Shown: one piece after another, positions 8,095 to 50,972 of the stretch
Numbering within the stretch: the first letter of the stretch is position 1
How the letters are laid out: the number at the start of each line of letters is the position of its first letter
Origin: Macrostomum hystrix
Taxonomy: Eukaryota; Animalia; Platyhelminthes
Length of the DNA: 64,000 bases
Direction: 5' to 3'
NCBI GenBank assembly: GCA_950097015.1
Contig: CATNEN010000001.1
Location: forward strand, 930,001 to 994,000
The notes under the pieces: generated by a model
What the model was told of the DNA's origin: nothing
Seen by the model: the letters and a program-made list of their open reading frames with translations, nothing else
Databases searched by the model: none
Program-made: the position numbers and the translations under genes

Positions 8095-8868
8095 TCAAAC
8101 TTGTGCCTCCTCAATTGCAATCGCTACTGCTGCTGACGCTTCCGCCTCTTCAGCTGCGGCATACAATAGGCAGTCGTCAGCTGGGTCAAATGTACAGCTA
8201 CTGGCTGTCATCGCTGCTGCTGACGCCTCTGCCTCTTCAGCTGCGGCATACAATAGGCAGTCGTCAGCTGGATCAAATAAACAGCTACTGGCTGCCATCG
8301 CTGCCGCTGCTGCTGACGCCTCTGCCTCTTCAGCTGCGGCATACAATAGGCAGTCGTCAGCTGGGTCAAATAAGCAGCTACTGGCTGCCATCGCTGCCGC
8401 TGCTGCTGACGCCTCTGCCTCTTCAGCTGCGGCATACAATAGGCAGTCGTCAGCTGGGTCAAATAAGCAGCTACTGGCTGCCATCGCTGCCGCTGCTGCT
8501 GACGCCTCCGCCTCTTCAGCTGCGGCATACAAAAGCTCGTCATCAGCTGGGTCAAATAAGCAGCTACTGGCTGCCATCGCTGCCGCTGCTGCTGACGCCT
8601 CCGCCTCTTCAGCTGCGGCATATAAAAGCTCGTCGTCAGCTGAGTCTAAGCAATTGGCTGCCATCGCCGCTTCGACCTCTTCAGCTACGGCGTATAACAA
8701 ATGGTCGTCTGCCAGGCCGAATACAAAACTGTATGTTGAATTGTATGTTTCATCATACCCGTAGTCATCATAGCCTGGCTCTTCATTCAGCTCAACGTCA
8801 TCGTCGTGACAGTTTGATGTCTCCGCATCGTTTAGAGTTGGCGCTGATGATGATGGTGATGCAGGCAT
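8095..8868 (-). CDS. Element gene 1: acidic Ala-rich protein with 7 tandem DDxLLYAAAEEAE motifs (93-bp unit)
   Basis: ATG-initiated 257-aa ORF; homolog at 45030-45839 keeps the start, the frame and the motif count, with only in-frame indels. Confidence 0.7.
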   Translation of the reverse strand: MPASPSSSAPTLNDAETSNCHDDDVELNEEPGYDDYGYDETYNSTYSFVFGLADDHLLYAVAEEVEAAMAANCLDSADDELLYAAAEEAEASAAAAAMAASSCLFDPADDELLYAAAEEAEASAAAAAMAASSCLFDPADDCLLYAAAEEAEASAAAAAMAASSCLFDPADDCLLYAAAEEAEASAAAAAMAASSCLFDPADDCLLYAAAEEAEASAAAMTASSCTFDPADDCLLYAAAEEAEASAAVAIAIEEAQV

Positions 8869-9105
8869 GGCGAGACAATGGGGGTAGTATTTAAAATGCT
8901 TAACTTGTTTAATTTACTTAATTAATTGTCCAAAGTTTAAACTGCATTGACTGCAGCATATTCTTAATAACATAAGATTATTAGCAAGCTGGTTACCATA
9001 GACTAGCGATCGGGTTTTTTAGTTATTTTCTTTACTAAGGTAAGTGGCGTAACTTATTTACACATTTTAGATTATTAATTATTGTTTCAAATAAAAAACT
9101 ACAAC

Positions 9106-9564
9106 ATGTCATCCCTGGGTGGGTGGCACAATGGCGGAGATCGAGATCGAGATATCGACAGAGAGGATCACAACTCTGGCAACGACAAACCGATCTCGTG
9201 CCCTACCGTCAGTAGCAGCACGGATGTCGTGATTGGCACTGAGCGGCGTCGACGAAGGCACAGTTCGGATAGTAGTTCAGACTCCGATTTTGCTATTCTG
9301 CCTTCACGTCAACGTGTTCAGTACGTATTGCATCGTCCAGGTGTCGTGCGCATTTACAATAAGAGATTTGGAATTGTGAACGCCAATCCGACACGTGATT
9401 TAGCCGGCCAATTGCAACTGCCGCAGCATGCGCAAGTGACCGATATACAGTCACCAATTATAAGCAGCAGCAGCAGCAACAGTAACAATGGCGGCACTGG
9501 CACTGAAAGAGAGCGCGGCGATGCCAATCGTGCTGCAAATAACCCAGATTTGAATGACATGTAG
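9106..9564 (+). CDS. Element gene 2: small protein with RRRRRH basic patch, unknown function
   Basis: ATG at 9106, divergent from gene 1; homologs at about 46070-46560 and 60146-60234. Confidence 0.5.
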   Translation: MSSLGGWHNGGDRDRDIDREDHNSGNDKPISCPTVSSSTDVVIGTERRRRRHSSDSSSDSDFAILPSRQRVQYVLHRPGVVRIYNKRFGIVNANPTRDLAGQLQLPQHAQVTDIQSPIISSSSSNSNNGGTGTERERGDANRAANNPDLNDM

Positions 9565-10089
9565 CAATTGTTTTGTTAAGCACTGTGTTAAGCACTGTTT
9601 CCATTGCTTATAATGAAATTAATTAACTGATTAATATAATTAGAAGTTTCATGTATTTGATTCATACATCAGAGTATTTAAAGTCGACAGTTCATGATGC
9701 CTGCAAATGTTTTAAAGTACTTTTATATACACTAGCTCTCGTTCACCTTCACGTGGTATATTCAAAGCATAAGAGTTTGCCGTCACTATTGACAATATAT
9801 TGTCGCGTTTACCATTAATCATAATCAGACGACTGATGAGATCAGTCAGTAATAAAATATTAATACGCGAACACAGATGTGTGCAGGTAGTCAACCGGTA
9901 ATTATTAATACGGTTTTTATTAAATTTCACCAATACATATAGAGTATAAATATATATAGAATTTCATTGGTTGAACAAATAATCGTGCCATTCTACAATT
10001 AGTCTGATTTGCAAAGTCGCGAGAGAAAAAATAAACGTGTAAACTATAATACATAAAATTCTGCATATAAATTCTGTATTTTACAGCAT

Positions 10090-10470
10090 TCATTGTTCGA
10101 TGTACCCGTAGCGAACTCCATGTACGATGAGCTGGAGTTCAGCTTGGGCGTCCTCAAAAAGCTCTAGCACTTCGATGATGTCTTGTGCTTCATCCTCTCT
10201 TATACCAGTCACGAACAAGACAGCCATATAGTCTTCTGCTGACCGGTGCTGTTGCAGCCATTGTTGAGTGCGCCGTAATAATAAGCATAACTCATTAGCG
10301 CTATACTCAGCATTTGGAACACCGCGCTGCAAACTAGGTAGCTGCTCGAAGCACCCTCGATGCGCTATGAACCGGCCAATGCAATCTATGCGACAGCTGA
10401 GAAAGAGTTGAAATATGTGCGGGTGAAGATACATTTGCACTAACTGCATCTGATGGGCAATGAATGACAT
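10090..10470 (-). CDS. Element gene 3: small predicted alpha-helical protein (this copy has a short C-terminal deletion)
   Basis: Close copies at 47042-47414 and 60630-61064; diverged paralog at 25608-26027 shares RG..EQL..LQR..P.AE, WL.QH, HG..Y and the IEQ* end. Confidence 0.7.
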   Translation of the reverse strand: MSFIAHQMQLVQMYLHPHIFQLFLSCRIDCIGRFIAHRGCFEQLPSLQRGVPNAEYSANELCLLLRRTQQWLQQHRSAEDYMAVLFVTGIREDEAQDIIEVLELFEDAQAELQLIVHGVRYGYIEQ

Positions 10471-10718
10471 GTTCAGTCAGTTAGTAAATCAAGCCAGCAT
10501 AAAGCTAAAAAAATAGTTAATTTAAAAATATTTTAAACTTTAATCAAAGCCCACATAGAGTATATTTTTTCGAACACAGATGAGTCAGTCCACAGACAAA
10601 TCCAATGAATACAGGCCAGCCAGGGTATTAAGAACAATAAATTTTTTATCGGCCAAGAAATCAGCCCACAACCAAACTTCGCAAGCAAAGCAGCAACAAC
10701 AGCACAACAACAGCAGCT

Positions 10719-11101
10719 ATGTCTACTTTCCCATTATTCCCGGCGGCGTTCCGGCACTACGTACTGGCGTCAGCCGCCGCCGAGTTAGAAGACGCAATGA
10801 GATCAACCATGGAGGTGGCAATGGAGGTAGCGGCGGCGGAAGCCTGGACGCCGGAACGGCGCCGGGCTGAAGAAAATATGACAGCCGCTATACGGCGGGT
10901 CCGGGCGGCCATGTTACGCATGGCCCGGGCCCGTCGTATAGCGGCAGGGCTGGATCCATATGTGAGTAGTAGATTTTGATTCCTTTCATTTGAATATTTA
11001 TGAACACATCTGCATTGTAACATCTAAGCTACTAAAGGAAACCTAACAAAATAAATGAAACCTAAAACCCATCTTTCATCCCGCAGCCGGGTGTCCTATG
11101 A
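10719..11101 (+). CDS. Element gene 4: about 85-aa helical Ala/Arg-rich protein, 2 exons (10719-10961, 11087-11101)
   Basis: Phase-0 donor TAT|GTGAGT and acceptor CGCAG|CCGGGTGTCCTATGA (PGVL*); the same intron position is kept in copies at 47.7-48.0 and 61.4-61.7 kb. Confidence 0.65.
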
Positions 11102-11479
11102 GAACCAGAGAACCTGGTTCAACACCAACAACACCAGCCGATCTGAGACATTCAATAGTTTCTCTTTGATAACTTTACCTCCTTTGTTATCTTACTGTCA
11201 ATACTGATTGGTCATACATCTCTGATACTGATACTGAAACGGATACATAAATACATCAAAACAATAAAACTGATTAAATGATTGAATGATTAAATTATTC
11301 ATGCTAATCTCGTCAATACGTGTTATGAATCGTTCTGTTATTTAATTACGTCTATTATTAACATTTGTGCGACAATAAGAACTCACTAACTGACAAGCAA
11401 AAAGAAACGAATTTTCGAGGTGCATTATTCCTTGTACATTATTGTACATTATTCAGCCATATAAGTTAGTTGGATAAGT

Positions 11480-11980
11480 TTGAAAAAGTAAAGTACAAAC
11501 GACGAATAAATTATTATACACTTTCGTATCGCTAGATATAAGATGTTACAAGATGCACTTTTAAAACGTGCAGACTATAGGTATGTAGTGCATTAAATTG
11601 TGCGTATTTTACCAAAGACATGTCTGCTTGGTACAGCTCGATTTTTCGCTATTTTTTATGTTCTTCGCATCCAAATTTTTCTTTCGAAAATACAGTTAGA
11701 TGTTTTTGGCCGTAGACACAAAAAACGGCTGCATATAATTCATATTGTATGCAGTATTTTTGCAAAAGTTCTTTAAGTAGCGTGGCCATATCTATGGTAT
11801 TTTCGCGAATATAGCCAGACATTTCATCTATAATTAGTATTTGCGCACTGCCAAAAACTTTTTCGCGAAAGTACATACGTATTCTTAAGTCAAAACGGCT
11901 ATGATCGTTGACTACTTGAGATCTGTGCATATTGTGCCAGTGGTAAAAAGGTAAGAAGGCTCTTGTGGAAGACAGTATCA
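11480..11980. repeat. Conserved non-coding block of the element family
   Basis: Aligns by eye with about 20150-20630 and 62030-62400, and partly with about 48600-48660; contains TTTTCGCGAA and TTTTGCAAAA sites. Confidence 0.8.
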
Positions 11981-12858: not shown

Positions 12859-14352
12859 TCAATTGCCGCACAGACATTGTCGCGTCTTGATCAATCGGCC
12901 GTGTCTTGACACTGTCGTAGTCAATATATTGTGTGTGCATATACAATACGAGCGTCTAGATGCATGCAAAGCATCAGTCGCAGGTATAGTCGATTGCGAT
13001 GACTGCACATCACTTATTGACATTGCGACATCGTCGTCAAGGTCGGCGGTCAGAACCAATTCTGCTGCGGCATCGGCATCTCCTTGCGGCACTGTCACAT
13101 CAGATAGCTGTTCATCAGAATCGTTGTTGACATCAGCAATGATGATCTCCATTGCGACATCAAACATGTCATCGATGTGACTTGCTTCGGAATGGGCAGC
13201 GAAATCCGATCCAGCAGCAGCAGCAACACAATCCGTATTGGTGGACAGAAATTGCATAGCGGCAGGTTGCATCAAGTCGAGCAGAATCTGCGCCATTTCA
13301 ATGTCATCACCGTGACCGGATGATGTACCAATACACACTGACTGCGTGCTGACATTGGCTTCGATGGAAACATCGGTCACACCGTTTTGTGCACTGACAC
13401 CAACTGTCGCTGTTGTTACTCTTGGCGCACAGACAGGAATAAAAACAGGTAGCGGCACCGGAACGAAATACGGCACCTCGACAGTTGGAATCGGCAACAT
13501 AGGCATCGCTGGTGATCCGATTGGCTCAATTTGCAACATTGGCATTGATGGCGATGGTACTGGCGAGTGATCCGATTGGATTGTTTCTGCTGCTGCTTCA
13601 ATCGCATTGTGATTAAGCGGAGTAGATGTACAAATTGGATGCCGTACTGATCCAATTGACACGCTGTCCGCTTGGCTCACATGTTCAGCAGGCTCGTCAG
13701 TACTTGTTGCATAGATGATGCCTGATTCAGCTGCGCTATCTTCTATGATGATAGTTTCTGCTGGCTGCTCTGCTGCTGACTGCTCTGCTGATGGCTGCTC
13801 TGCTGCTGGCTGCTCTGCTGCTGGCTGCTCTGCTACTGGCTGCTCTGCTACTGGCTGCTCTGCTGCTGGCTGCTCTGCTGCTGGCAGTCGACGGGCAATG
13901 TAGCGCTCGTGCATATAGTCGACAATCTCGCCGACCACAGCTGGTAGTGGATCCAGTTGTTCAAGCTGGACCACTTCGCCCATTGCCGCTGCTCCCGCCA
14001 CTGCCACTGGCTGAGCTGGTTGGCCACCGACGCGACGCTGCGGATTCCGCTTACATCTATATAGATGATGCAACATGTTGGACGTTATTTTGTTGCAATG
14101 CGAACACGCTAGCACACGTCCACCGGCAGCGACATCCACACCAGCCCGCTGTAGTTGCAGCATCTTCCAGACGGCACTTCCACGCTCCTTAACCGACGCG
14201 AATAGCGATGGCCTTTGACCAACAGGTAGGACTGTCCAGTCAAATTCGGCATGGACAGCTTTATGCGCCTCTATAAAATGTCTTCGCATCATATTGGCGC
14301 GGATTTGCTGGCCGCAGAAATGGCAGAAGCGGAGTCCGTTGTTGTCTTCCAT
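12859..14352 (-). CDS. Element gene 5: N-terminal double zinc finger (C2H2 plus C2HC) followed by a long acidic, disordered region with (AEQPA)n and a PV-rich motif
   Basis: 497-aa ATG ORF; CHFC-x11-H-x4-H and CSHC...H...CKRNP; VPYFVPVPLPVFIPV; near-identical copy at 23419-24708. Confidence 0.8.
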   Translation of the reverse strand: MEDNNGLRFCHFCGQQIRANMMRRHFIEAHKAVHAEFDWTVLPVGQRPSLFASVKERGSAVWKMLQLQRAGVDVAAGGRVLACSHCNKITSNMLHHLYRCKRNPQRRVGGQPAQPVAVAGAAAMGEVVQLEQLDPLPAVVGEIVDYMHERYIARRLPAAEQPAAEQPVAEQPVAEQPAAEQPAAEQPSAEQSAAEQPAETIIIEDSAAESGIIYATSTDEPAEHVSQADSVSIGSVRHPICTSTPLNHNAIEAAAETIQSDHSPVPSPSMPMLQIEPIGSPAMPMLPIPTVEVPYFVPVPLPVFIPVCAPRVTTATVGVSAQNGVTDVSIEANVSTQSVCIGTSSGHGDDIEMAQILLDLMQPAAMQFLSTNTDCVAAAAGSDFAAHSEASHIDDMFDVAMEIIIADVNNDSDEQLSDVTVPQGDADAAAELVLTADLDDDVAMSISDVQSSQSTIPATDALHASRRSYCICTHNILTTTVSRHGRLIKTRQCLCGN

Positions 14353-14539
14353 TGCAGCTTAAATATAGTCGTTCGCTGGCTAGCCTGCTGAATAATCGAC
14401 AGAGTGGTCGTTGTGGCTGAATTTTAATTATCGATTTGCGTGCGCGCGCGCATATATTTACCTAGCACTGCTCATATCCTGTACAGAGCAGCAGTCAGAC
14501 ACATAGACATAGACAGACATCGTCAACTATTTCCATATA

Positions 14540-15145
14540 TAGTATTTTCGCGAAAATACTGATATGCTCTATAAACAAAGGTAAGGGCAGTATTTTTGCA
14601 AAAGTTCTTAAAGTAGTATGCATGATTACATCTTTGGTATTTTCGCGAAAATACTGCTATGCTATTAAACAAAGGTAGTTGGCGGTATTTTTGCGAAAAT
14701 TCTTAATGTAGTGTGCATGGCTACATATTAAGGTATTTTCGCGAAAATACTGCTATGCTATTAAACAAAGGTAGTTGGCGGTATTTTTGCAAAAGTTCTT
14801 AAAGTAGTGTGCATGGCTACATCTTAAGGTATTTTCGCGAAAAGACTGCTATCCTATTAAACGCAGGTAGTAAAGGTAGTTTGCGGTATTTTTGCAAAAG
14901 TTATTAAAGTAGTGTGCATGGCTACATCTTAAGGTATTTTCGCGAAAAGACTGCTATGCTATTAAACAAAGGTAGTTGGCGGTATTTTTGCAAAAGTTCT
15001 TAAAGTAGTGTGCATGATTACATCTTTAGTATTTTCGCGAAAATACTGCTATGCTATTAAACAAAGGTAGTTGGCGGTATTTTTGCAAAAGTTATTAAAG
15101 TAAGTAGTGTGCATGGCTGCATATTATGGTATTTTCGCGAATTTA
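14540..15145. repeat. Palindrome array 2 (about 7 units of 96-105 bp)
   Basis: Same unit as array 1; lies between the 5' end of gene 5 and the 3' end of the recombinase gene. Confidence 0.95.
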
Positions 15146-15542
15146 GATACGTATTCTCAGACAAAGTGACTTGTACTTTTTTACCATCGACAAATTTGGT
15201 ATATTTCTGCTAATTGTCAATAATCACGAATGATTTTTTCGTGTATCTTCGGCTTTTAAGAAAACGAGAATAGTTTAATCTTAGTTTAATCAGATGATAA
15301 TCAAATGATTTCATTTGATAATTTATTTAATTACTAACGAAATAATCACAGTGTTGACAATCATTAGCATCTTAACAATATATAAGAGAGCAACAAACAG
15401 AACATATGAGATTCTCGGTTGTAAAGGGACGGGTATTAGTGGGGGTATCACAATTGACACAATTGATAATTGATAATAGTTTGGCAAATCAGACAATCAG
15501 CACATATAAAGTCAGATGACACGACTGGGACAATATGAGCAT

Positions 15543-18500
15543 TCAGATGTCCAGTCTAGTTCTCGAACTGATCAGGCGCCCAGATCGCGTCCTGTATTCC
15601 GTTCGACGAACCATGAGTAGCTCAGAATCCGAGCTGGTCTCATTGTCATTGCTGACGTGCTGTTGTTCACCATCATCACCTTCTTCGTCGATATCGTCGT
15701 GAACGTTGCCTTGTCCAGCCGATGCTCCAAACATCGGCGGTTGACTAAGACTGCGTCGTCTAGACGATGTAGACGAAATAGGCGATGGTGTTGCTGAATC
15801 GATGGCCGGCTTTGTCGACTCGGTGTTGTCCGTTGTTGAACATCTAGGACTAACCGTAGCGGGTCGCATTGTCGACATTCGAGGTCGCTTCTTGTCAGTG
15901 GCCTTGCAAATGGACGACCGTCGAACGCGTCGCTTGCGTGTGCGTTGACTATGTGGCATCACAATGTCATCAGCAGGTAGAGGAGATGCAGCCGATGAAT
16001 TGGTTGCGTCCAGATCAACGCTACAGGCGGCAGAGCGACGACGCTTCGTGTCGTTTTCGGCTGTTGGATGTCGTTGATGTCGACGATCAAGTGGCCGATT
16101 GTGACAGAATGTCTCGAAGCATCCTCTGACGTCGTCGGCGACCATCAGATTGGCCTGCTGTTTGGCCAGGCGTCCATACGCATTCACGACACAGTTGCGC
16201 GATGTGTCGTACAGAGGCACCAGCTGGTCTAGCTTGTCGGGATGCGCGTGCACATAGGCCGACAGTACATTTCGACGACCATCGCCCATGCGATAGGGCC
16301 GATCGATGACCAACTCGGCGCCCTGCTTGACAAGCGTGCTGAAACTTGTCGAGTCACGCTGCTTGCCACGATGCGTAGGAAACAGCAGACATTTGCCTGG
16401 CCTGACATGGATGTTGCACTCGGCGAAGTATGGCAATAGAAAGTTGTCTATCCATTGCAGTAGACATTCGCCGACTTTGCGTGGCGCAGTCCAGCTTGCA
16501 CCTTTACCACAACCGTCCTTTTTGTGTGCCACTTCGGTAGGCGGCAGGACTGTGACAATGGTGGAGGACGTTGATACGCCGCTATTGAGTGCAGCATCCA
16601 AATAGCAACGCCGAATCGCGACCCATGGACGTAGTCGATTGGCATGGACAATTGCTGCACAGAAGAAGGCCAGTTCACGCGTGATCGGCATAATAAATGT
16701 ATTCCATTTGCCGACGACGTTGGCCATTCGACGTGCACATTGTCCAATGCGACCCCAGTAGCCCTTCACGGGTAGATGAGACCACGAATGTTTGGCGACC
16801 ATATCAATCAGGCAGTCTAGCCGGTTGTGAATGATGCGCCATTCGTCAGCGGTCAGGAACTTATCCGTGTAGGACAGCTGGCGTTCGTCATCGCGCAGGT
16901 GATAGATATTCTCTTGCCGCTGACGAATCAATCCAATGCAAGCCTGTACATGTTAAAGGGTTATGAAAGAGAAAGTACATGCAGTAGCTTCTACAATTGT
17001 TCGTGATATATCAACTAACATAGTATACAATATGCGACACAACAACACTGCTCACCATGATTGATTCGATGCGGCTAGTCAACAGACCAGATACTGCAGT
17101 CTGATGATAGAGAATACCATCTTTGAGCGGGTCAGGACAGGCAGGCAATTCTGACGCGGCCTTGACAATGTCGGCATGCACGTTGGCAAACAATCCATCT
17201 GGTGGCGAGGTCAATTGGAACGCGTTCATAACACTAGGAGCACCGAAGTCGTTGTTGGCTGCTAGAAACTTCTTCGCGCCGCTCAATATGTTATGAAGCT
17301 CGTTCATTCGCTGTCCAACAGTCGATGGTTTCCAGATATGGCGCTTCACCATCTCGTCCAAATCGAATTGGATGCGCCCTGGATTGATGAACCACATCTC
17401 GACTGTGACATTGATTGCGTGTAGGAGACGACTAGTTGTAGCATGATAGTTCCGCTGGATTGCTTTCCTACGACTAACATGCGATGCGTTCTCTTCTACA
17501 CAGCAATGACCCTTGAACCAGATGTCGCCGACATTGTCTAGTTGCTTGTACATGTGTTCAGATGCAACGTGGTAGTCTGGGCCGTCGAAAACAACAAGCC
17601 GAGACTTCTTGTGCCTCCGTTGCAATACAAGCTCCTCTTCACTGACAGAATCATCAGTATTTTCCACGTCAGATTTAGAGGTCTGAGTCTCTGCTTGTCG
17701 CTGACTGACAGCATTGGTGACTCCGACCGGAACATAGTCTGACGTATACTGGAGAATTGCTTCTGTCAGATTGACCAGATTCTGCAAGCTAGTACACACG
17801 CGCGGATGCTCAGCGTTGTGGGCTTTCTGCAGAATCTCGTTGAGGCCGGCCGCATTCAGACGCAGTCCATTGATAAACTCTGTTTGACAGGAAAGTTATA
17901 AATATTTGTTGATTATTTTTTTGTCTTTATGTGTAAATTTAAAAATGTAAAGGCATGTACAACAATATTTTAGACCACTTACTGATCGCTGCCACATTGT
18001 CGTTGGCATTATCGAATTCTGGCATCGTACTCGTTTCGTTTTGCAGTCGCTCGATGTCGTGACTGACAATATCGGCCGTGTAAGATGGTCCGGCACGATC
18101 GAAACTAGCCAACACCGGTGCTACTAAAGTAGACGGTGTGACAGACGATGCACTGCTGATAATGCGTACAGCATTGGACTGTCCAGCAGAAGACGATCCC
18201 GCAGAAGACGCTAACACGACAATAGGCGGCTCAATGTTTGCACCCGCGTCTATCGAATCAGACGAAGAGTCGTCGCTGTCACTTGACGAACGGGTTGCAT
18301 TTGCTGCCTCTGTAATTGCCGGTTTACGCTTGCATGTCCTGGCAATGTGTTTACTGAGATGCTGAACACCTTTGCCACAGTATTGACAATAAGACAAAGA
18401 TGCATCGGATCCATCCCGACGTAACCGGATGATCTTCAATACGGTCTTTGCCTTGACGTCATACGATGCAGTCGCTGCGGGTCGTTGAACCTCCGGGATC

Positions 18501-18604
18501 GTGCTCCAATCGAAAGCCGAGACGAAGTCTGAATGATTTGTAAGAAAGTGCCTTACAACATTCGTCTTCCAAAATGAAGCTTTGCAGACTGGGCACGTAT
18601 CCAT
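15543..18604 (-). CDS. Element gene 6: zinc-finger plus divergent tyrosine recombinase, 3 exons (18604-17983, 17879-17056, 16943-15543), about 948 aa
   Basis: Donors GTAAGT and GTGAG and acceptors AACAG and TACAG join three ORFs in frame (phase 1, then phase 0). YR-like order: WKPSTV core-binding-like helix, NRLRP (R), AHK (K), LLFPTHRG, GDGRR, YDTS, NAY (Y). Confidence 0.75.
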
Positions 18605-19192
18605 TTCGCTGGTTAATATTTAATTTAGCTGTTCCAAAGTGCTTATGACAGAAGAACGTTTACACAGATTTGTAAGCGAGCGCGCTCGGCTTCTGACTTA
18701 AGCTGCTATCGTGACCCGTACGACAGTTTAATCACATAAACTATCATTCAAGGTTGGTCTATGGCGAAAAAGCATAATATCGAACTCATAATATATTTAA
18801 CGTTGCTATATTGTCTACTCATAGTAGAGTAGGTAGTTTCGAACAGAAAATGAACATAAACACGAATAATTATTTGATTTCTGAATGTCTATATGTTGAA
18901 AAGGCACTTAAATTATTGTTGATTATTCCAGAGGTATTTTCGCGAAAGTACATATATATTCTCAAACAAAGGTTAATGCAGTCTTTTTGCGAAAATACTT
19001 TTGTGTTAATATGATTACTCTTTCTAGTGGTATTTTCGCGAAAAGACATATGTGTCCCATATAAAAGTAAAGGCATAATCAAAAGAAGGTAAATGCCGTA
19101 AACGTTAATAATAATGGGGGTTCACAAAAAGTAGTTTGGTAGTAATTAGTAGTAAATTACTAGCATATTTTTTTAAATAGAGAAAAATGCGT

Positions 19193-19262
19193 AGTGCCGA
19201 CTGGGATTCGAACCCGAGCCACTGCTACTAAAAAGGAATGCTTTAGACCTGCATGCCAGATC
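19193..19262 (-). pseudogene. tRNA-derived sequence (tRNA pseudogene or SINE head)
   Basis: Minus strand has a degenerate A-box TGGCATGCAGG and a perfect T-arm/B-box CTCGGGTTCGAATCCCAG; the anticodon arm is not well formed. Confidence 0.5.
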
Positions 19263-21134
19263 ACTTGCAATTGAAATGTGTGTTATCTTGTTATTTATAT
19301 TGATTTTCTTTCGGATGTTGGATTTTTAATGATTTTTGTCTGCAAATAGTGGAATCTTGATCACGTTTTCAATATTTTCTAACAGAACAATAAGATTTAT
19401 TGAGAGAATATAGATAGTACTGCTGATTATTACTACTATTGTTAGTATTTTCGCGAAATACGGATACGTATTTAATGCTCACACCATCTACCATCTGTCA
19501 GTGTCTCCTCTGGTTCTGGTTCTGTTCCTTTATGCCGGTGCCAAGTCTATACCAGTGGCGGTAATAATGCCCTGTTAAGCATTAAAACTTCTGTCTTTAG
19601 TCAGTAGTCTGCAGCGTTTTGTGCAATTATTATTATTCATAATCTTCATAAACATGATAAAATTGCACGTATTGTTCAACCGTTTTCCTACAATTGATAA
19701 TCAGATTACTTAATTCCTGTTTACGTGTTGACATTCTCATCTTAAATTAACAACAATTCGTTTAAAATCACTGCCTAGCTTATGTCGAAAACTTTCTCTA
19801 AAAATATACAAATTTCAAAGGCGCTGAATGCCGCCATATGCAAAAGTAATTCTGACTGCCTGCCTATATTCTGCAGTTCAGTATGCTTTAAAATGTTAAA
19901 AATTCAAAACAGTTAATAAAAATTGGCCTTTTCTCTTCGTTTGTACATTTTTACTATTGCTTTTTTAAGCAAAATATACTACTTTTACTCAATGAGGGCT
20001 AATGCCCTCAAAAATAAATAAGAAAAAAAATAAGAAAAATGACGGAGAACTCGGAGAACTTAAAAAATGTAAATGAAAAATGACAAATAAATTATTATAC
20101 GCTTGTGCCAAGATAAAGAAAGTTAAGTTTATACGAAGTTGCTCATGTAAAAAACATTAATAAAAACGGATTAGTTTTGAAAAAGTAAAGTACAAACGAC
20201 AAAAAATTATTACACACTTTCGTATCGCTATAAGATATTCCAAGATGCACTATTAAAACGTGCAGACTATAGGTATGTAGTGCATTAAATTGTGTGTATT
20301 TTAACATAGACATATCTGCTTGGTACAGCTCGATTTTTCGCGATTTTTTTATTCGTATCCACATTTTTTCTTTCGAAAATACGGTCAGACGTTGTTGGCC
20401 ATAGACACAAAAACGACTGCATATAATTCATATTGTATGCAGTATTTTTGCAAAAGTTCTTTAAGTAGCGTGGCTATACCTATGGTATTTTCGCGAATAT
20501 AGCCAGACATTTCATCTATAATTAGTATTTGCGCACTGCCAAACGAAACGAAAACAAGTTGACTACTTGAGATCTGTGCATAATGTGGCAGTGGTAAAAA
20601 GGTAAGAAGGCTCTTATGGAAGACAGCATCGTCACACCGGACTGCTATACAGTATAGCAGTATACAGTATACACTAGCATTTGTAGTGTAGTGAGTGGGA
20701 GTTACTGTGACATGGTTCACATACTGCGACATGTCACATAATGGTTAATATCAATTTGCAATTTAACGTTGTACATCGCATAGCTGCTCGTGCCAATGTT
20801 AGATTGACGTTGTACGTCTGGTTAAATTCGCGCATTTTGCGCAACGCAAAATACAGCAGTACTTTGCATAGACGTACAATGTCAATCTAACATTGCCCAT
20901 GCAAGTCTCAACCTCATGAGTGTTTCCTGGTATGTCCTCATTCTCCCACTGTCTTTCGACTATCTTTTGTATTTTTAAATGTTTCATACAGTTTTTGTAT
21001 GCCAATTTTATAAAAACGACTGCGACCAAGTGACTGTCCTTTCAAGCGCAGCTACAGTACATGTCAAATTAGCATTAATAAATAAATAATAAATATAAAT
21101 AATTTAGTGTTTGTTATTTGTATAATCATTAATA

Positions 21135-22820
21135 TTGGTTTTGACAATCAATATGAGAAGATGGACAATCAAAATGAAGACAGCCATAGATCTGAATGCA
21201 GCAGCTCAGCACAGCTTCGCAGCAGCTGCGGCTTAGGCCATAGACTTTTGACGATCGAAATGAGAATTGGACAATCAAACTGGCAACGGGAGCAGTATGC
21301 ATGTTTATTTGAACGAAAATTTAACATTAAAATGTATAAATTTAAAAAAGTTAAAATTTAACAATAGAAACGAGAAATCAACAACAGAAATGGCAACACA
21401 GCCTCTAACAGTCAGAAAAAAGATGGAAACACAGCAGTCCAGCAGCATGGGTTCAAAACTCATGCCCAGCAAGGCAGCGTCCAAGCTGACGGAAGCAGCG
21501 CGATTCCCACGCAGCTGCCTTATCCGGAGTCACGGCTTCAGGCAGTGACTCACGCGCCACTCTCTCCAGCAGCATGTAACGCCACTCTTCCTGGTTCACG
21601 CCTTCTGGGGCAACTGCCTCTTCATCAACGATGTCAGGCTGCGCCAGTCTGCTTTTGATCTTTGCCTTGAGGCAACTGTTGGCGAATTCCGAAGGGTTCA
21701 GAAAAGGTAAATATCCCGGAAGAATGCGGATGGACACAGCGTACTGCAGATGTTGCGGAATGCGCGCTGCTCGATGGAAATGCGGACCGTCCATCACGAC
21801 AAGCCACGAAGCCGCAGCATCAAGACGGTGGCATTCCTCGCTCAGTTCGTCGATGAAGATCTGAAATCTGGCGTTCGTCTGGCCTCCTCGGAACACCGAC
21901 GAATGCACGAGGCCAAACTCAGCGGCTATCGCCATGCAAACAGTCACATTTGGTCCGCGCTGCGTTGTGACCCTTCGCCTGACCTCTTCACCTTTTAGGC
22001 TGCGACCCTGCGATCTTCTGGTCCACAAATTGAATCCCGTTTCATCAAGAAACACCAACCGTACTGCAGGGGTCCAAGTTCAGCACGAACTCTGCGTACT
22101 CTCGCCGAGCCTCAATGTTCTCCTGGCTGTTCGTTCTCGAGCGCACATCCGTGCCCTTGGTGGCCAGCTTAACTGTGTACATCAGTCCCTGTAGAATTCT
22201 GTCCACAGTTCTGTACGAGATGTCCAGTTTGTCGGGGAAATGGTTGTTGACCCGCTGTGCCATCTCGCTCAGGGTGAGGAACGGGTTGCGGTTCACCTCT
22301 GCTTCCAGAAATTCACGAATCTTCTCATCCACCTTGCACCTTGCTTCTTTTCGGCCTCCACGAGGCATAACGTCCATCCTTCCCTCATTCCTGTACAGCC
22401 TCACGATGCGATGAGCAGTTGAACTTGACAGCTGAAGGATTATTGCTGCGTCCTTGACCGGTGTGCCTCGATTCATTGCCTCGATGAGCCGACGTCGGTC
22501 AACTGGACTCACAGGTGGTGCTATCACCAGCAAACTGGAGAGATGGCTGGCAGAATGAATCTTTTGCTCAAAGCCTTACATGCGGTTTCCACTGGCATTA
22601 AAAGGGAAAAGTGAAGTCCATTCTATTCTTTCCTTCATGGTGCTGTCTCGCTACACTAACCAAGCGTTGCCATTTTGATTGTCCAATTCTCATTTCGATC
22701 GTCAAAAAAGTCTATGGCCTAAGCCGCAGCTGCTGCGAAGCTGAGCTGAGCTGCTGCATGCAGATCTATGGCTCTCTTCATTTTGATTGTCCATTTTCTC
22801 ATATTGATTGTCAAAACCAA
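21135..22820 (-). mobile_element. IS630/Tc1/mariner DNA transposon with about 155-bp TIRs and TA target-site duplication
   Basis: TIRs at 21135-21288 and 22664-22820; TA on both flanks; the empty site TTAA-TA-GTACACAAC is present in the paralogous copy near 12397-12410. Confidence 0.95.
21453..22533 (-). pseudogene. Tc1/IS630-like transposase (HTH plus DDE), one frameshift near 22060
   Basis: FLDETGFNL, VMDGPHFH and PFLNPSE motifs (D-x33-E by my count); N-terminal HTH lies in the adjacent frame. Confidence 0.9.
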
Positions 22821-23418
22821 TAGTACACAACTTCTTATCTTGTTTATTCTATCATTAAAATAATATGAACTGAACTGACTGGCGGTTATGCGGTGTACAT
22901 TGGCGTTGAGACTTATTACAAGACCGACGTAATCGTAATCGATCAGTCTGAGATATTATTTTTGTATTTATATTGCGCAAAACCTGAGAATAATGAAGTA
23001 GACTTAAAACTAATATTGATGTAATAAGAATAGACAGTAGTGGAATCAAATCGCTTAGAATCAAATCGCGTAAAAGTTTACCTTTCTTAGTTTTTTCTTA
23101 TATCTACGTATATTAAATCAATCGATTAAATCAAGTTCAGTCTGAATTTATTATAAGTGAGTCAGTCGATTATTCAGCCAGCCAGCCAGCCAATCAGCCA
23201 GTAGACAGACAAAGCAGCCCAATCTGAGTTGCACGCCGAGCCAATTGAATTGAATGAAATCAATTGCCGCACAGACATTGTCGCGTCTTGATCAATCGGC
23301 CGTGTCTTGACACTGTCGTAGTCAATATATTGTGTGTGCATATACAATGCGAGCGTCTAGATGCATGCAAAGCATCAGTCGCAGGTATAGTAGATTGCGA
23401 TGACTGCACATCACTTAT

Positions 23419-24708
23419 TTAACTTGCGACATCGTCTTTAAGGTCGGCGGTCAGAACCAATTCTGCTGCGGCATCGGCATCTCCTTGCGGCACTGTCACA
23501 TCAGATAGCTGTTCATCAGAATCGTTGTTGACATCAGCAATGATGATCTCCATTGCGACATCAAACATGTCATCGATGTGACTTGCTTCGGAATGGGCAG
23601 CGAAATCCGATCCAGCAGCAGCAGCAACACAATCCGTATTGGTAGACAGAAATTGCATAGCGGCAGGTTGCATCAAGTCCAGCAGAATCTGCGCCATTTC
23701 AATGTCATCACCGTGACCGGATGATGTACCAATACACACCGACTGCGTGCTGACATTGGCCTCGATTGAAACATCGGTCACACCGTTTTGTGCACTGACA
23801 CCAACTGTCGCTGTTGTTACTCTTGGCGCACAGACAGGAATAAAAACAGGTAGCGGCACCGGAACGAAATACGGCACCTCGACAGTTGGAATCGGCAACA
23901 TAGGCATCGCTGGTGATCCGATTGGCTCAATTTGCAAAATTGGCATTGATGGCGATGGTACTGGCGAGTGATCCGATTGGATTGTTTCTGCTGCTGCTTC
24001 AATCGCATTGTGATTAAGCGGAGTAGATGTACAAATTGGATGCCGTACTGATCCAATTGACACGCTGTCCGCTTGGCTCACATGTTCAGCAGGCTCGTCA
24101 GTACTTGTTGCATAGATGATGCCTGATTCAGCTGCGCTATCTTCTATGATGATAGTTTCTGCTGGCTGCTCTGCTGCTGACTGCTCTGCTGATGGCTGCT
24201 CTGCTGCTGGCTGCTCTGCTGCTGGCTGCTCTGCTGCTGGCAGTCGACGGGCAATGTAGCGCTCGTGCATATAGTCGACAATCTCGCCGACCACAGCTGG
24301 TAGTGGATCCAGTTGTTCAAGCTGGACCACTTCGCCCATTGCCGCTGCTCCCGCCACTGCCACTGGCTGAGCTGGTTGGCCACCGACGCGACGCTGCGGA
24401 TTCCGCTTACATCTATATAGATGATGCAACATGTTGGACGTTATTTTGTTGCAATGCGGACACGCTAGCACACGTCCACCGGCAGCGACATCTACACCAG
24501 CCCGCTGTAGTTGCAGCATCTTCCAGACGGCACTTCCACGCTCCTTAACCGACGCGAATAGCGATGGCCTTTGACCAACAGGTAGGACTGTCCAGTCAAA
24601 TTCGGCATGGACAGCTTTATGCGCCTCTATAAAATGTCTTCGCATCATATTGGCGCGGATTTGCTGGCCGCAGAAATGGCAGAAGCGGAGTCCGTTGTTG
24701 TCTTCCAT
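23419..24708 (-). CDS. Second copy of gene 5 (double zinc-finger acidic protein), C-terminally truncated by a new stop
   Basis: Almost identical to 12859-14352, with two fewer AEQP repeats and TAA at 23419; homology continues downstream to about 22823. Confidence 0.75.
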   Translation of the reverse strand: MEDNNGLRFCHFCGQQIRANMMRRHFIEAHKAVHAEFDWTVLPVGQRPSLFASVKERGSAVWKMLQLQRAGVDVAAGGRVLACPHCNKITSNMLHHLYRCKRNPQRRVGGQPAQPVAVAGAAAMGEVVQLEQLDPLPAVVGEIVDYMHERYIARRLPAAEQPAAEQPAAEQPSAEQSAAEQPAETIIIEDSAAESGIIYATSTDEPAEHVSQADSVSIGSVRHPICTSTPLNHNAIEAAAETIQSDHSPVPSPSMPILQIEPIGSPAMPMLPIPTVEVPYFVPVPLPVFIPVCAPRVTTATVGVSAQNGVTDVSIEANVSTQSVCIGTSSGHGDDIEMAQILLDLMQPAAMQFLSTNTDCVAAAAGSDFAAHSEASHIDDMFDVAMEIIIADVNNDSDEQLSDVTVPQGDADAAAELVLTADLKDDVAS

Positions 24709-24904
24709 TGCAGCTTAAATATAGTCGTTCGCTGGCTAGCCTGCTGAATAATCGACAGAGTGGTCGTTGTGGCTGACTTTTAATTATCGATTTGCGTGCG
24801 CGCGCGCATATATTTACCTAGCACTGCTCATATCCTGTACAGATGAGCAGTCAGACACATAGACATAGACAGACATCGTCAACTGGGTCTAAGCTATTTC
24901 CATA

Positions 24905-25320
24905 TATAGTATTTTCGCGAAAATACTGATATGCTCTATAAACAAAGGTAAGGGCAGTATTTTTGCAAAAGTTATTAAAGTAGTGTGCATGGCTACATCT
25001 TATGGTATTTTCGCGAAAATACTGTTATGCTATTAAAAAAGGTAGTTGGCGGTATTTTGGCAAAAGTTCTTAAAGTAGTGTGCATGGCTACATCTTATGG
25101 TATTTTCGCGAAAATACTGATATGCTATTAAACAAAGGTAGTTGGCGGTATTTTTGCAAATGTTATTAAAGTAGGTAGTGTGCATGGCTACATCTTATGG
25201 TATTTTCGCGAAAATACTGATATGCTATTAAACAAAGGTAGTTGGCGGTATTTTTGCAAAAGTTCTTAAAGTAGTGTGCATGGCTACATCTTATGGTATT
25301 GTCGCGAATGCAGATACGCG
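24905..25320. repeat. Palindrome array 3 (about 5 units)
   Basis: Same GTATTTTCGCGAAAATAC / TTTTGCAAAA unit, upstream of the second gene 5 copy. Confidence 0.93.
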
Positions 25321-27183: not shown

Positions 27184-27617
27184 TCTCCCTATGGCTACTA
27201 GGCTACTACTAACAGTAGGCATGCGTCGCGCAAAAAGACTGAATGACCTTTTTTTGATCTCCCTAGTGTATTTCTAAAAATAGAACACCATAGGTGGTCA
27301 TTTCGCGAAAATACTGACGCGCATATACGAAATGACATTTTTTGATCTCCGTAATGTATTTCTATTATTAGAACAACTAAGCTTATGTCTTTTTGCAATC
27401 GGGCACTTCGGAGCATGTAGTCATGTTTGCGAAAGTACTAATGTATATCACTTTGTCCTTCATGCACCATTTCATTGTGCTTTCGCGAATGCACCGAGTT
27501 TGCATGGACGGACTAACTTATTACCGCATATTGTATACTATGTTAGTTGATATATCATGAACAATTGTAGAAGCTACTGCATGTACTTTCTCTTTCATAA
27601 CCCTTTAACATGTACAG

Positions 27618-29012
27618 GCTTGCATTGGATTGATTCGTCAGCGGCAAGAGAATATTTATCACCTGCGCGATGACGAACGCCAGCTGTCCTACACGGATAA
27701 GTTCCTGACCGCTGACGAATGGCGCATCATTCACAACCGGCTAGACTGCCTGATTTATATGGTCGCCAAACATTCGTGGTCTCATCTACCCGTGAAGGGC
27801 TACTGGGGTCGCATTGGACAATGTGCACGTCGAATGGCCAACGTCGTCGGCAAATGGAATACATTTATTATGCCGATCACTCGTGAACTGGCCTTCTTCT
27901 GTGCAGCAATTGTACATGCCAACCGACTACGTCCATGGGTCGCGATTCGGCGTTGCTATTTGGATGCTGCACTCAATAGCGGCGTATCAACGTCCTCCAC
28001 CATTGTCACAGTCCTGCCGCCTACCGAAGTGGCACACAAAAAGGGCGGTCGTGGTAAAGGTGCAAGCTGGACTGCGCCACGCAAAGTCGGCGAATGTCTA
28101 CTGCAATGGATAGACAACTTTCTATTGCCATACTTCGCCGAGTGCAACATCCATGTCAGGCCAGGCAAATGTCTGCTGTTTCCTACGCATCGTGGCAAGC
28201 AGCGTGACTCGACAAGTTTCAGCACGCTTGTCAAGCAGGGCGCCGAGTTGGTCATCGATCGGCCCTATCGCATGGGCGATGGTCGTCGAAATGTACTGTC
28301 GGCCTATGTGCACGCGCATCCCGACAAGCTAGACCAGCTGGTGCCTCTGTACGACATATCGCGCAACTGTGTCGTCAATGCGTATGGACGCCTGGCCAAA
28401 CAGCAGGCCAATCTGATGGTCGCCGACGACGTCAGAGGATGTTTCGAGACATTCTGTCACAATCGGCCTCTTGATCGTCGACATCAACGACATCCAACAG
28501 CCGAAAACGACACGAAGCGGCGTCGCTCTGCCTGTAGCGTTGATCTGGACGCAACCAATTCATCGGCTGCATCTCCTCTACCTGCTGATGACATTGTGAT
28601 GCCACATAGTCAACGCACACGCAAGCGACGCGTTCGACGGTCGTCCATTTGCAAGGCCACTGACAAGAAGCGACCTCGAATGTCGACAATGCGACCCGCT
28701 ACGGTTAGTCCTAGATGTTCAACAACGGACAACACCGAGTCGACAAAGCCGGCCATCGATTCAGCAACACCATCGCCTATTTCGTCTACATCGTCTAGAC
28801 GACGCAGTCTTAGTCAACCGCCGATGCTTGGAGCATCGGCTGGACAAGGCAACGTTCACGACGATATCGACGAAGGTGATGATGGTGAACAACAGCACGT
28901 CAGCAATGACAATGAGACCAGCTCGGATTCTGAGCTACTCATGGTTCGTCGAACGGAATACAGGACGCGATCTGGGCGCCTGATCAGTTCGAGAACTAGA
29001 CTGGACATCTGA
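27618..29012 (+). pseudogene. Inverted partial copy of gene 6: intron 2 remnant plus the complete recombinase exon 3
   Basis: About 27527-29091 is the reverse complement of about 15460-17035; protein nearly identical; exons 1-2 absent upstream. Confidence 0.85.
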
Positions 29013-29389
29013 ATGCTCATATTGTCCCAGTCGTGTCATCTGACTTAATATGTGCTGATTGTCTGATTTGCCAAACTATTATCAATTGTGTACTTAAATA
29101 ATTGCGTAATAAACTAACGATTAATTACAGAGAATGAAATTGTGTATATTTTTTCTGTAGAACTAATTGTTCCCATTGCAATTGATAAAAATATAACTGA
29201 ACTGAGAACTAGCTTTTGGTTATCGAGACAAAAAACAAAATGGCATATTTGATATTTGATATAATCGTAGCGGCCTGTATCATGAAGTTTATAGGAAGTG
29301 ATAGGAAGGGAGTAAATAAAACTTAGGAAGTGCAAATTTCAATTAGATCTTACTCGATGATTTCAAATTCCCATTTGTGTCAGTCAGAT

Positions 29390-48023: not shown

Positions 48024-48850
48024 CCAAGAGCCGTCTGCATTGACCAGAAGACCAAGAAGCGAGTGCATGATTCCTGATGACAATATGCGTGGATGACATT
48101 GATGACAGGCAGTGCATGATGACATCAATCTGAAAAGTACATGCTTATTGTTTGTTTGTTTGTTGTTTGCCCGACGGGCTAAGGTGCTTTATGAGAATAC
48201 GTAATGCTTTATGTCATATATCAAATAAATAAATGCGTCCATTGATTACATTATCATAATGATAAAATTGTTCTGTTATTTTATTATGTCTATTATATTA
48301 ACATTTGTGCGACAATAACAACTCACTATAACTGACAAACAAAAAGGGACGTATTTTCAGGCGAAGTGTCTTGCCTTTTTACTGCCGTACTTATGAAAAT
48401 AAACCTGAGATTGTGCGGCTACATCAGCCGGTATAATGGGTATATATATTCGCGAAAGTACAAATGTGTCTTCAAACAATTTAAAATGCATAGTTGCGCA
48501 ATAGTACTTGAAGTAGTGCTGCTTGCACCTGAAGTAGTAAAGTATAATGCGAAAGTAATTGAATTAACATGGCAAGACTATCTACTTGTGATAGATTAGA
48601 TGGTATTTTCGCGAAATAGACATAGACATTTCAACGATTAGTATTTGCGCAGGGGCAAAAATGTTTTTGCTGAATAATATTCATAAATGAATTTTCGCGA
48701 AAAAGTTTGGTCTATAGCGAAACCTAGAACTACAGTCGAGTACAGTCGCAAAAGTGAGCTATCTGGTTAATGCGATAGCCTCTGGTTATTGCCGCCCAAT
48801 CAATTGGTGGCGCCGGCGACCATACTGATCGCAGAGAGTCTACGCCTATA

Positions 48851-50972
48851 GTGTTCTCATTGGAAGATGACTCAGCTAAGGACACGGACGATTTGCTAGC
48901 TGATGACGTAAAGCTGGAGATTGTGGACGAGTGGACGAGCACTACAGACAATGTAGAGTCGAATACTGCCCCTGTTTTGACGGCTTCTAATAGTTCAGAC
49001 TTGTCATCGCAGCTAGTCGATGATAAGTACAAAACAGAGGTGGCAGAATTATTGCGCGTAAATGGCGAGTCGACTATTCCTAAAAATAGTGCCGCACTTG
49101 GTGCCTGTCCGACTTTGCCAGATTATGCGCCTCGCTCTACACCGGCAATGTCTGTCATCGAGAATGTGACAACATCCGATGATGATGAACCAGCTCTCAC
49201 AGTATTTTCTCCAGCGTATGTCGACGCTTCTGAATCAACAGCGCAACAGTCGGGACGACTGCAGCAATCGCAGCAGCAGCATCAACAGCGAGATCAACAA
49301 CCGCAGCAGCGGCAACAGCAGCAGCAGCAAGTTGGTGGCGTGGCATTTGCTCCGATAGCCGATGAATATGCGTTGTGTCGTTCGACATCACCACTTCTAC
49401 GGCTATGTCCTCGAGCTCCAATTACCGACTACGCCTCTTTAACAGCAGAGGGCAGGTCGGTTCTCGCGACTAGAAGGACGCTCCATCTTATAGAGATTGC
49501 ATTTATATCTAGAGATGTGGAATCCTTCAAGGCGTTTCTAGAACATGAATTGGTAGCTCCATGTGCACAGTTTGCCATCGGCGCAACAGCAAATGTTCAC
49601 CTTGACATGCTGATCAGCGACGAAATCCGAGGACGCCGTCGGCAGAAATACAATATGTCAATGCGAGAATATCTAGGAACTCCGAATCATCCCAATGGTT
49701 TGCTGATGTTCCTGAACCTGCGCCTACCAGAAGATGGTTACACTGTTTGCTGCGGACTGCATGCCCTTTTGATGGAATCTGCGGAAGCTTCGGCCTACCT
49801 GCATCCTACAATGGGTAGAATGACAGTGTCTAGTGTACGCAGTGCGTCAAGTGCAATTAAGCTAGTTACCAGTACGGACGAGTTTCCAGCTCTTTTCCGC
49901 GTTTCTACTCAAGAGTGCAGCTTGCTGACCAAGGCCTTTTGCTGGGTTGCTGCTCATGAGACGTCATCTACTGAGCCTTTGCTAGATAGTGGCTTCATGT
50001 TCGAACACTTTCGTGTCAGACAAGAGCTCAGCGATTACTTAAAGGTGACTCAGATGAAACGCGTAATAGCAACAGAGGTGCTAGCTGGTTGCCAAAACTG
50101 TCGCCCTACTGCCGCTGCCGCCGCCGCCGCTGCTGATGGTGCTGCAACAGCCGACTATGCGAGTACGACCTTGCCTACTCAGCTGGAGGTATGCAAAATA
50201 TTATAAGACATGTCATTTTTAGCAGACGTATGAGTATTGATCATTGAAGTTTTGCTGTTGTTTTAATTTAATTCAATTATTACTTTTCGACAATTAATTA
50301 ATTGTATGCGAACCTACCTACACAACACCATCAAACAGGTCTCTGCTGCTGCAGGAATCTGCTGCTACTGCTGTTCATGTTCCTGATGCCGCCGTCGCTC
50401 GTGTTCCCCGGCTGATCGCCGCCGCTACCAACGTGTGCCCAACTGTAAAGGCTGTGTGCAGCGCGTTGCAATTGCCAACTGGTGTCGTCTATCTATACGG
50501 CCCGTCTGGCGTTGGGAAGACCCACTCTGTGCAAAGCCATATCGGTTCTACGAAAGTGCTGAATATCCATGTGCAGAAGCGGTCTAACACGTTTATGTTT
50601 GACAAGCTCTGCGAGACAATACATACTGCAATGTTTATTGACGAGCTACGCCCGCAACTGTTTGATGAGACATCTGAAGTCATGTGCACACTACTTCGTT
50701 TGGTCAATAGAGACACTTTTGAAGTCAATGCTAAATACAAGGCCATTCGACACGTCTCTTGGCTCAATCGACTGCTAGTGCTTGCTGGGCATGCTCCGGT
50801 CAGTGCGTATTCGATGGACTTTCAGCGCCGATTAGAACCGACACCTGATGGGCACAAGCGTCCGGTAGTTGCCATCTTCATTGGTAATTCTCTCCGTACT
50901 GACTACCAATGTGATGGACAATGCCACCCAATACGCAATGTTTTTGGCGATCACCCGGACGTGCAAATATGA
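48851..50972 (+). CDS. Element gene 7: Rep/NS1-like protein with C-terminal SF3 helicase, exons about 48851-50188 and 50355-50972 (true start uncertain)
   Basis: Phase-0 GAG|GTATGC ... TGCAG|GAA joins both ORFs in frame. Walker A GPSGVGKT, Walker B MFIDE, motif B' FEVNAKYK, motif C-like LVLAGH, Arg finger FQRR. Upstream VHLDMLI and SAIKLVTSTDEFP resemble decayed HUH motifs II and III. Confidence 0.75.

Follow-up and report, generated by a model that had tools for sequence, protein, structure and literature searches.

Most known tyrosine-recombinase elements of animals are Cryptons, DIRS/Ngaro retroelements or viral genes, detected with Pfam-type profiles. Three open reading frames on the minus strand of a 64,000-nucleotide stretch of the Macrostomum hystrix genome (contig CATNEN010000001.1, positions 930,001 to 994,000; this whole stretch is called the window) raise the question of whether a recombinase gene of another kind is encoded there, whether its product could still act with several of the usual catalytic residues replaced, and what sort of element, if any, it would serve.

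Gene model and splicing

The original prediction had joined the open reading frames 17939-18604, 17011-17799 and 15543-16931 in frame, and translation of the splice model agrees, giving one 948-aa frame with a single stop, at its end. Exon 1 (17983..18604, minus strand as for the whole gene, 622 nt, aa 1-207) encodes two Cys/His clusters (CxxC..H..H and CxxC..H..C), for which the C2H2-type Pfam matches are weak and under the cut-off, and then a low-complexity linker. Exon 2 (17056..17879, 824 nt, aa 208-482) contains a conserved stretch at about aa 301-481, which from its position is likely to be the core-binding domain. Exon 3 (15543..16943, 1401 nt including the stop, aa 483-948) encodes the predicted catalytic domain followed by a C-terminal tail, low-complexity and basic/acidic from about aa 770. 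An NHR2 Pfam match (E 0.0025, under the cut-off) was treated as chance. Intron 1 (17880..17982, 103 nt, phase 1, GTAAGT..CAG) and intron 2 (16944..17055, 112 nt, phase 0, GTGAGC..CAG) have GC contents of 24% and 36%, respectively, compared with 49-54% for the exons.

Only 2 of 18 GT/AG combinations near the junctions leave the frame open, namely the 948-aa model and a 951-aa variant with a donor 9 nt downstream. The former is preferred because its junctions match those of Logan contigs from the runs X3 and X4, which lack 103 nt and 112 nt, bounded by CT..AC, at the two introns. These two runs come from one study under one organism code, the kind of run (RNA or DNA) not being on record, and they are the only two of four runs with contigs that skip both introns; X1 and X2 yield only fragments, with small shares (0.15 and 0.07) that carry no information on habitat. 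One contig comprises exon 1 and the whole of exon 2 and another nearly the whole of exon 2 with exon 3, with none among the matches listed covering all three exons. Contig cover in X3 and X4 tracks the gene and is thin or missing in most flanking bins, and this confinement fits RNA; intron 2 is retained in one X4 contig of low depth. The junctions 17983/17879 and 17056/16943, which the original prediction had singled out for checking, are thus joined in public contigs, which speaks against separate transcription of the three frames. The gene model with two introns is well supported.

Homologs and family

A HMMER scan over 1.84 billion representatives gave four matches at E values up to 0.001, and an alignment-based search added one further protein. 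Two of the four are Macrostomum lignano clusters, with six members and one member. The M. lignano protein P0008 (1084 aa) matches all three exons in order, with 34% identity over 151 aa for exon 1, 35% over 182 aa (E 6e-32) for exon 2 and 43% over 278 aa (E 8e-76) for exon 3, and this colinearity is support for the gene model that does not depend on the contigs. An in-frame stretch of 10 residues, located exactly at the exon 2/3 junction of the window gene, distinguishes the M. lignano models from one another, as expected of an intron at the same place, and the M. lignano homologs therefore probably share the position of intron 2. The seven M. lignano entries comprise five distinct sequences over a common 164-aa stretch, with 0-5 differences. 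The M. lignano genome is duplicated, and the copy number may reflect this in part or may come from redundant gene models. The remaining proteins (P0003, P0004, and P0010) are partial and 24-36% identical. Judged by these alignments the family is real, though known from very few sequences.

The recombinase domain is not recognized by Pfam, NCBIfam or PHROGs, and the M. lignano entries are annotated just as "C2H2-type" or "Ras-GEF domain-containing", never as recombinases; for these two reasons the lineage may have been overlooked. A profile of the family run against Escherichia coli K-12 did not detect XerC or XerD, so the family is strongly diverged. Word-indexed homolog searches with the window protein gave no match, which means little because relatives at 40% identity exist. 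Metagenome contigs and phage records held no relatives of the recombinase, and viral contigs held none of the recombinase, the helicase or the repeat pattern described below.

Predicted fold of the catalytic domain

A model of the catalytic region from the single sequence reached a pLDDT of only 33.7, and an 8-row alignment was used instead. The best of five models, for residues 504-765 (16095..16880), has a pLDDT of 76.8 and a pTM of 0.73, with the other four at pLDDT 43-60; within the best model the final 70 residues, which include R705, T729, and Y738, reach only about 57-63. In an unbiased structure search of 48,161 chains, independent of Foldseek, the first 31 of the 50 rows listed are all recombinases, topoisomerases IB, telomere resolvases or proteins derived from these. 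XerA (5hxy; rmsd 4.2 over 179 aligned residues) and XerH (5jjv) score Z 12.2-12.5, followed by a staphylococcal integrase (11.5), an integron integrase (10.6), Cre (10.5) and MrpR (10.2), then TopIB (up to 8.6), TelK (6.7), TelA (5.6), Ndc10 (5.0), a QRICH1-containing entry (4.5) and ResT (4.4), compared with 4.3 for the best unrelated chain. The original prediction would have fallen had no lambda-integrase fold been predicted; with Z 12.2 for XerA and XerH against 4.3 for unrelated chains, such a fold is predicted. In the Foldseek comparison that it had proposed, recombinases and topoisomerases IB fill all 32 of the PDB rows listed, each however at E > 0.001. Among Foldseek matches to viral models, again each at E > 0.001, integrases make up most of those listed, and nudivirus integrase and VLF-1 stand at ranks 14, 23, 31, and 47 with phage integrases as high or higher. 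Atlas features place the window protein and P0008 with PF00589/PF13009 clusters, a single source that is weak by its own measures, and sequence searches of the PDB gave no real match. Folding of the exon 3 region as a tyrosine-recombinase catalytic domain is well supported by these models. Solved regulators with a recombinase fold (MrpR/YopR, represented by MrpR above) score nearly as high as the recombinases themselves.

Active-site residues

The residue register comes from an alignment of the family with a 68-sequence profile of XerD-like domains (E 0.005), which places G702 on XerD H244, R705 on R247, YDTS on LGHS and Y738 on Y279; R585 falls on XerD R148 in both global and relaxed alignments. 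In the R..K..xxxR..Y register the Tyr lies 9 residues past the His/Trp site, as in Xer and Cre. In the 68 controls R, H, R, H, and Y are present in every sequence and E and K in 67. On this register R585 (codon 16637-16635, counted from the L586 codon; all codons on the minus strand), R705 (16277-16275) and Y738 (16178-16176) are predicted to be the two catalytic Args and the catalytic Tyr, in that order. K623 (16523-16521), which is invariant in the 7 rows that cover it and is flanked by two predicted strands, is likely to be the catalytic Lys on account of its invariance and loop position and is the least certain of the four. An alternative reading of DGRR as the HxxR box, with Asp703 in place of the His and Arg706 as the catalytic residue, was rejected since the profile alignment sets R705 on XerD R247.

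All of the motifs first noted (NRLRP, AHK, LFPT..G, GDGRR, YDTS, and NAY) are present in the translation. The altered HxxR (GDGRR) and GH/W (YDTS) sites were read correctly, as Gly702 (16286-16284) at HisII and Thr729 (16205-16203) at His/TrpIII, whereas a third, Pro588 at Glu/AspI, had been missed. D703, R705, R706, S730, and Y738 are found in 5 of 5 rows, down to 24% identity, and R585 in 6 of 6; the Pro at the Glu/AspI position occurs in all 6 covering rows and T729 in 4 of 5, missing only from the second window copy, while position 702 varies (G, G, S, M, and T). These rows span 24-43% identity and represent at most five independent sources, because both copies from the window and three sequences from M. 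lignano are among them. Since the residue pattern is common to the relatives, it is a family trait and not decay.

Precedents for the individual changes exist. According to the excerpts of the Cre mutagenesis study drawn on here (PMC2943603), Tyr and Lys alone are strictly required, with a single change tolerated at each Arg. Activity is moderate for H289G, strong for H289M and very weak for E176P, and the Trp315 changes that those excerpts name as active do not include Thr. The same source describes a big hydrophobic residue two positions before His/TrpIII, or four past ArgII, as able to support the tyrosine helix; the window protein has Tyr727 two residues before Thr729 (Leu in distant relatives) and Leu709 four after Arg705. 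The sections consulted of further reports describe natural integrases in which HisII is Ala (pTN3) or His/TrpIII is Ala or Val (SNJ2 family) (PMC5861418), Starship clades with YxxR in place of HxxR (PMC11162782) and bacterial subgroups with a variable first His (PMC8138268); those of PMC8371274 give only a general catalytic tetrad. Each of the three changes thus has precedent, and the triple combination is without tested precedent in the literature examined. As the altered sites vary in known active enzymes, the protein is less canonical, yet its case for working like a tyrosine recombinase is not lowered. That it may still be active, as originally proposed, is reasonable: it retains the four residues at which Cre bears change worst, and its three altered positions are those where Cre accepts several substitutions. 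By this analogy the protein is likely to be catalytically active.

The second copy and selection

An inverted partial copy at 27525..29087 (plus strand) is limited to exon 3 plus the greater part of intron 2 and is 98.7% identical to its counterpart at 15468-17036, with two in-frame 3-nt deletions. It keeps GDGRR but reads YDIS, with Ile at residue 729, the His/Trp position; the claim that both copies carry the same substitutions fails at this residue. Because the copies are 98.7% identical, their shared residues are not an independent sign of constraint, and the argument from two copies falls away. Between the copies 8 of 13 changed codons are synonymous (25% expected, p 0.006, dN/dS about 0.21). 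Between the window and the contigs the proportion is 8 of 25, close to neutral, for 29 of the 40 rows listed, with 45 further rows outside the count; these changes count against strong constraint.

Genomic setting

The window is eukaryotic and transposon-rich, with CryptonA-like, Tc1, Gypsy- and BEL-type pieces. Next to the recombinase gene lies a zinc-finger paralog (12859..14349, minus strand). Its N-terminal zinc-finger pair is the only part shared with the recombinase (31% over 96 aa, E 3e-15), its R.GRLI tail resembles that of the recombinase, and it is without the recombinase domain. A duplicate of this paralog is found at about 23263-24705. Between the two genes is an array of 95-105 bp units (14538..15151), each with a TTTCGCGAAA palindrome, and three further TTTCGCGAAA palindromes (18938..19458; at 18938, 19034, and 19449) lie upstream of the recombinase start codon. 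There are 30 matches to TTTCGCGAAA in the window compared with 0.12 expected, a count that reflects duplication because they lie largely in tandem 95-105 bp units. The palindrome is found upstream of the recombinase, zinc-finger paralog and helicase genes, and none of 38 TTCGCGAA cores falls within the four recognizable RT/DDE segments (11.9 kb in total). The arrays could also be host satellite or an unrelated non-autonomous element. One of them abuts the CryptonA element.

An SF3-like helicase gene, probably of two exons (48779..50972, plus strand), has a 166-nt GT-AG intron and ends in the helicase domain (PF00910, E 0.0015, under the cut-off). Its N-terminal part has no match in searches, and its resemblance to HUH proteins is tentative at most. 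The gene starts about 750 bp past a duplicated cassette of orphan open reading frames; the originals are at 8095-8913, 9079-9564, 10090-10476, and 10641-10979, and they recur at around 45-48 kb and, in part, at around 60-61 kb. The helicase gene lies 30 kb from the recombinase and is linked to it only through shared flanking sequence; it possibly belongs to the same element. No terminal repeats, target-site duplication or empty site were identified from the window, and a search for a simple Crypton bounded by terminal repeats found none. A block from 11472 is apparently duplicated in tandem from 20168, with a Tc1 insertion, and the repeat 11472-11979 / 20168-20630, considered as a pair of element ends, looks instead like the start of this duplication unit. 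The open reading frames scanned from 7 to 30 kb include no RT or RNase H; the closest matches to integrase/RNase H are Gypsy/BEL-type pieces from 32 kb on.

Proposed mechanism and alternative explanations

On balance, and with restrained confidence, we favor a spliced 948-residue protein whose exon 3 encodes a predicted tyrosine-recombinase catalytic domain and which is likely a still-functional integrase of an invertebrate multi-gene mobile element. In such a protein the exon 2 domain and the catalytic domain would clamp the DNA site, Arg585 and Arg705 would hold the scissile phosphate, Tyr738 would form a 3'-phosphotyrosine and Lys623, in the beta2-beta3 loop, would activate the leaving group. 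The tyrosine helix could be propped by Tyr727 (or the Leu of distant relatives) or by Leu709, in replacement of HisII, His/TrpIII, and Glu/AspI, and two rounds of exchange, passing through a Holliday junction, would release the element in circular form for reinsertion. The N-terminal zinc-finger pair may read accessory sites, at which the finger-only paralog may act as a competitor or a regulator; candidates for these sites are the TTTCGCGAAA arrays, the weakest step of the proposal. A multi-gene element is possible. It is a tentative and rather doubtful extension that the locus belongs to an unrecognized class of large intron-containing animal DNA elements, with an R-K-R-Y recombinase, a zinc-finger partner, an SF3-helicase replication protein, small orphans and palindrome arrays, as the animal equivalent of Starships or as an integrating replicon without a capsid.

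The protein might instead be a DNA-binding regulator that has kept the recombinase fold and no longer recombines, in the manner of a domesticated DUF3504 protein or of MrpR/YopR, its fingers and clamp binding DNA and its tails recruiting partners. Non-canonical residues at three of seven active-site positions, a gene with introns and spliced contigs, the adjoining finger-only paralog, the Z score of MrpR and the failure to find element ends in the window all agree with such a role, which we nevertheless regard as unlikely. The Tyr and the second Arg are kept in 5 of 5 rows of the family, and domesticated animal DUF3504 genes have lost both in the portions of the reports used here (PMC3212892, PMC13465315); moreover, a mobile element better accounts for several near-identical copies (in M. 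lignano, and two in the window) and for a setting rich in orphan genes and transposons.

Descent from an endogenous DNA virus (Polinton-like, nudivirus-like or of unknown type) appears quite unlikely. On that reading the protein would be the viral integrase or a VLF-1-like product, the helicase and small orphans would be further genes of the virus, and the palindromic arrays would correspond to origin- or enhancer-like repeats. In Polinton-like viruses a tyrosine recombinase is often accompanied by an SF1/SF3 helicase, as stated in the parts consulted of bioRxiv 10.64898/2026.06.19.733378 and PMC11131425, one Atlas match set (at 0.94) is 80% viral with Preplasmiviricota commonest, and nudivirus integrase and VLF-1 appear among the viral fold matches; against this, those matches rank no higher than phage integrases, the recombinase and helicase genes have spliceosomal introns, the viral contigs hold no relatives, and no capsid, packaging ATPase or polymerase families were found by Pfam, which may miss divergent ones, among 79 open reading frames of the window, itself partial and rearranged. 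A single-site nicking-closing or resolving enzyme of TopIB or telomere-resolvase style, acting on replication intermediates of an element and not as a two-site recombinase, is very unlikely, for although TopIB has no equivalent of Cre His289 or Glu176, two of the three altered positions (PMC2943603, excerpts), one Atlas match set is ResT-TelK (0.92) and the palindromic arrays could serve as substrates, recombinases score Z 12.2 against 8.6 for TopIB and 6.7, 5.6, and 4.4 for TelK, TelA, and ResT, box II is in register with XerD, and TopIB, in the same excerpts, keeps a His at the position of Thr729.

The family is also a natural test of the minimum set of catalytic residues for a recombinase. 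Three positions are lost together here, and Cre tolerates each loss singly in the excerpts cited (PMC2943603). Should the neighboring genes travel with the recombinase, they would form a cargo-carrying type of element not found for animals in the literature searched.

Comparison with known systems

The literature searched, which left aside Repbase Reports, subscription journals and supplements, held no account of the window family. The nearby Crypton at about 5626-7055 matches PF12012 (DUF3504, E 3.6e-13) and PF00589 and keeps TNHSLRAT/GHRS, whereas the recombinase matches neither profile and has no similarity to it, bearing out the original prediction that it is unlike this Crypton. By this sequence comparison, made with the CryptonA element of the window and not with other Repbase lineages, the recombinase is not a CryptonA/DUF3504 member; the lineages described in the parts consulted are CryptonA, F, I, and S (Kojima and Jurka 2011, PMC3212892) and CryptonV and others (PMC8869645, PMC4157794). 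Like Cryptons, it is eukaryotic, occurs in animals and has no linked reverse transcriptase, and no terminal repeats were found, as is reported for animal Cryptons in the portion of PMC3212892 used. Unlike them, the family lacks the HxxR and GH histidines throughout, and the window gene has an N-terminal zinc-finger pair, a long C-terminal tail and a multi-gene setting. DIRS/Ngaro/VIPER elements differ in having a linked RT/RNase H within split or inverted repeats, and no such RT or RNase H was found among the open reading frames scanned around the window recombinase.

Polinton-like viruses, nudivirus integrase and VLF-1 resemble the locus in the pairing of a recombinase with an SF3 helicase and in nearby repeat arrays, and differ in that the window genes have introns, no virion genes were detected in the window and no sequence relatives occur in viral contigs. 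Telomere resolvases and TopIB score below the recombinases, with no Pfam match, a lower score that is compatible with similar chemistry. Starship captains are likewise eukaryotic recombinases with associated extra genes and, in some clades, a changed HxxR box, in the sections consulted of PMC11162782; captains are fungal and carry DUF3435, for which the window protein has no match. With Xer, Cre, and phage integrases (XerA 5hxy, XerH 5jjv, Cre) the protein shares the predicted catalytic-domain fold (Z 10-12.5), at about 10-14% identity, and it is set apart from Xer and Cre by an inserted helical segment (about 35 residues) ahead of box I, by its spliced eukaryotic gene and by Pro, Gly, and Thr at the Glu-Asp, His, and His-Trp sites. 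Its closest counterparts are the homologs of the M. lignano UniRef A0A1I8G604 cluster (P0001, P0002, and P0005-P0009), which have the same domain order and residue pattern at 34-43% identity.

Genes and repeats around the recombinase gene

The probable two-exon gene at 48779-50972 (+), interrupted by a 166-nt GT-AG intron at 50189-50354, encodes an SF3-like helicase domain at its C-terminal end, while the N-terminal region matched no known family. The palindromes upstream of this gene are the same as those upstream of the recombinase gene, and its product may be one of the replication proteins of that gene's element. At 7025-7670, 14538-15151, 24900-25310, and 26290-26600, units of 95-105 bp with TTTTCGCGAAAA and TTTTTGCAAAA palindromes are repeated in tandem; these arrays could represent origins, binding sites or a host satellite. 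Upstream of the recombinase gene, segment 19486-19824 is covered by contigs of runs X3 and X4 at about the gene's own depth, a possible 5' exon or separate transcript.

A zinc-finger-only paralog of the recombinase is present in two copies (12859-14349 and about 23263-24705, both -), the second with an earlier stop; the paralog contains a 15-bp repeat (EQPAA) and a C-terminal R.GRLI motif similar to that of the recombinase. A cassette of four small orphan ORFs, none with a Pfam match at cut-off, occurs in two to three copies (8095-10979, 45030-47916, and 60145-61271). One of these ORFs carries 31-33-aa acidic repeats, and one has a 41% identical paralog at 25608-26075. The Tc1/mariner-type element at 21130-22825, with 120-bp inverted ends, is inserted in the duplicated block. 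Two overlapping orphan ORFs of 251 and 216 aa at 1787-2999 (-) matched nothing in Pfam, and a single-ORF bHLH gene (PF00010) resembling Hairy/E(spl) proteins lies at 858-1343 (+).

The CryptonA-like element at 5626-7055 (-), with DUF3504 and PF00589 matches, is broken across three ORFs and keeps the canonical TNHSLRAT/GHRS motifs; a palindrome array directly adjoins it. The Macrostomum lignano homologs P0001, P0002, P0005-P0007, and P0009 are labeled 'Ras-GEF domain-containing' in UniRef, and the two of them that were scanned gave no match to the Ras-GEF Pfam domain. These proteins are fragments of the same recombinase family as the 948-aa protein of the window.
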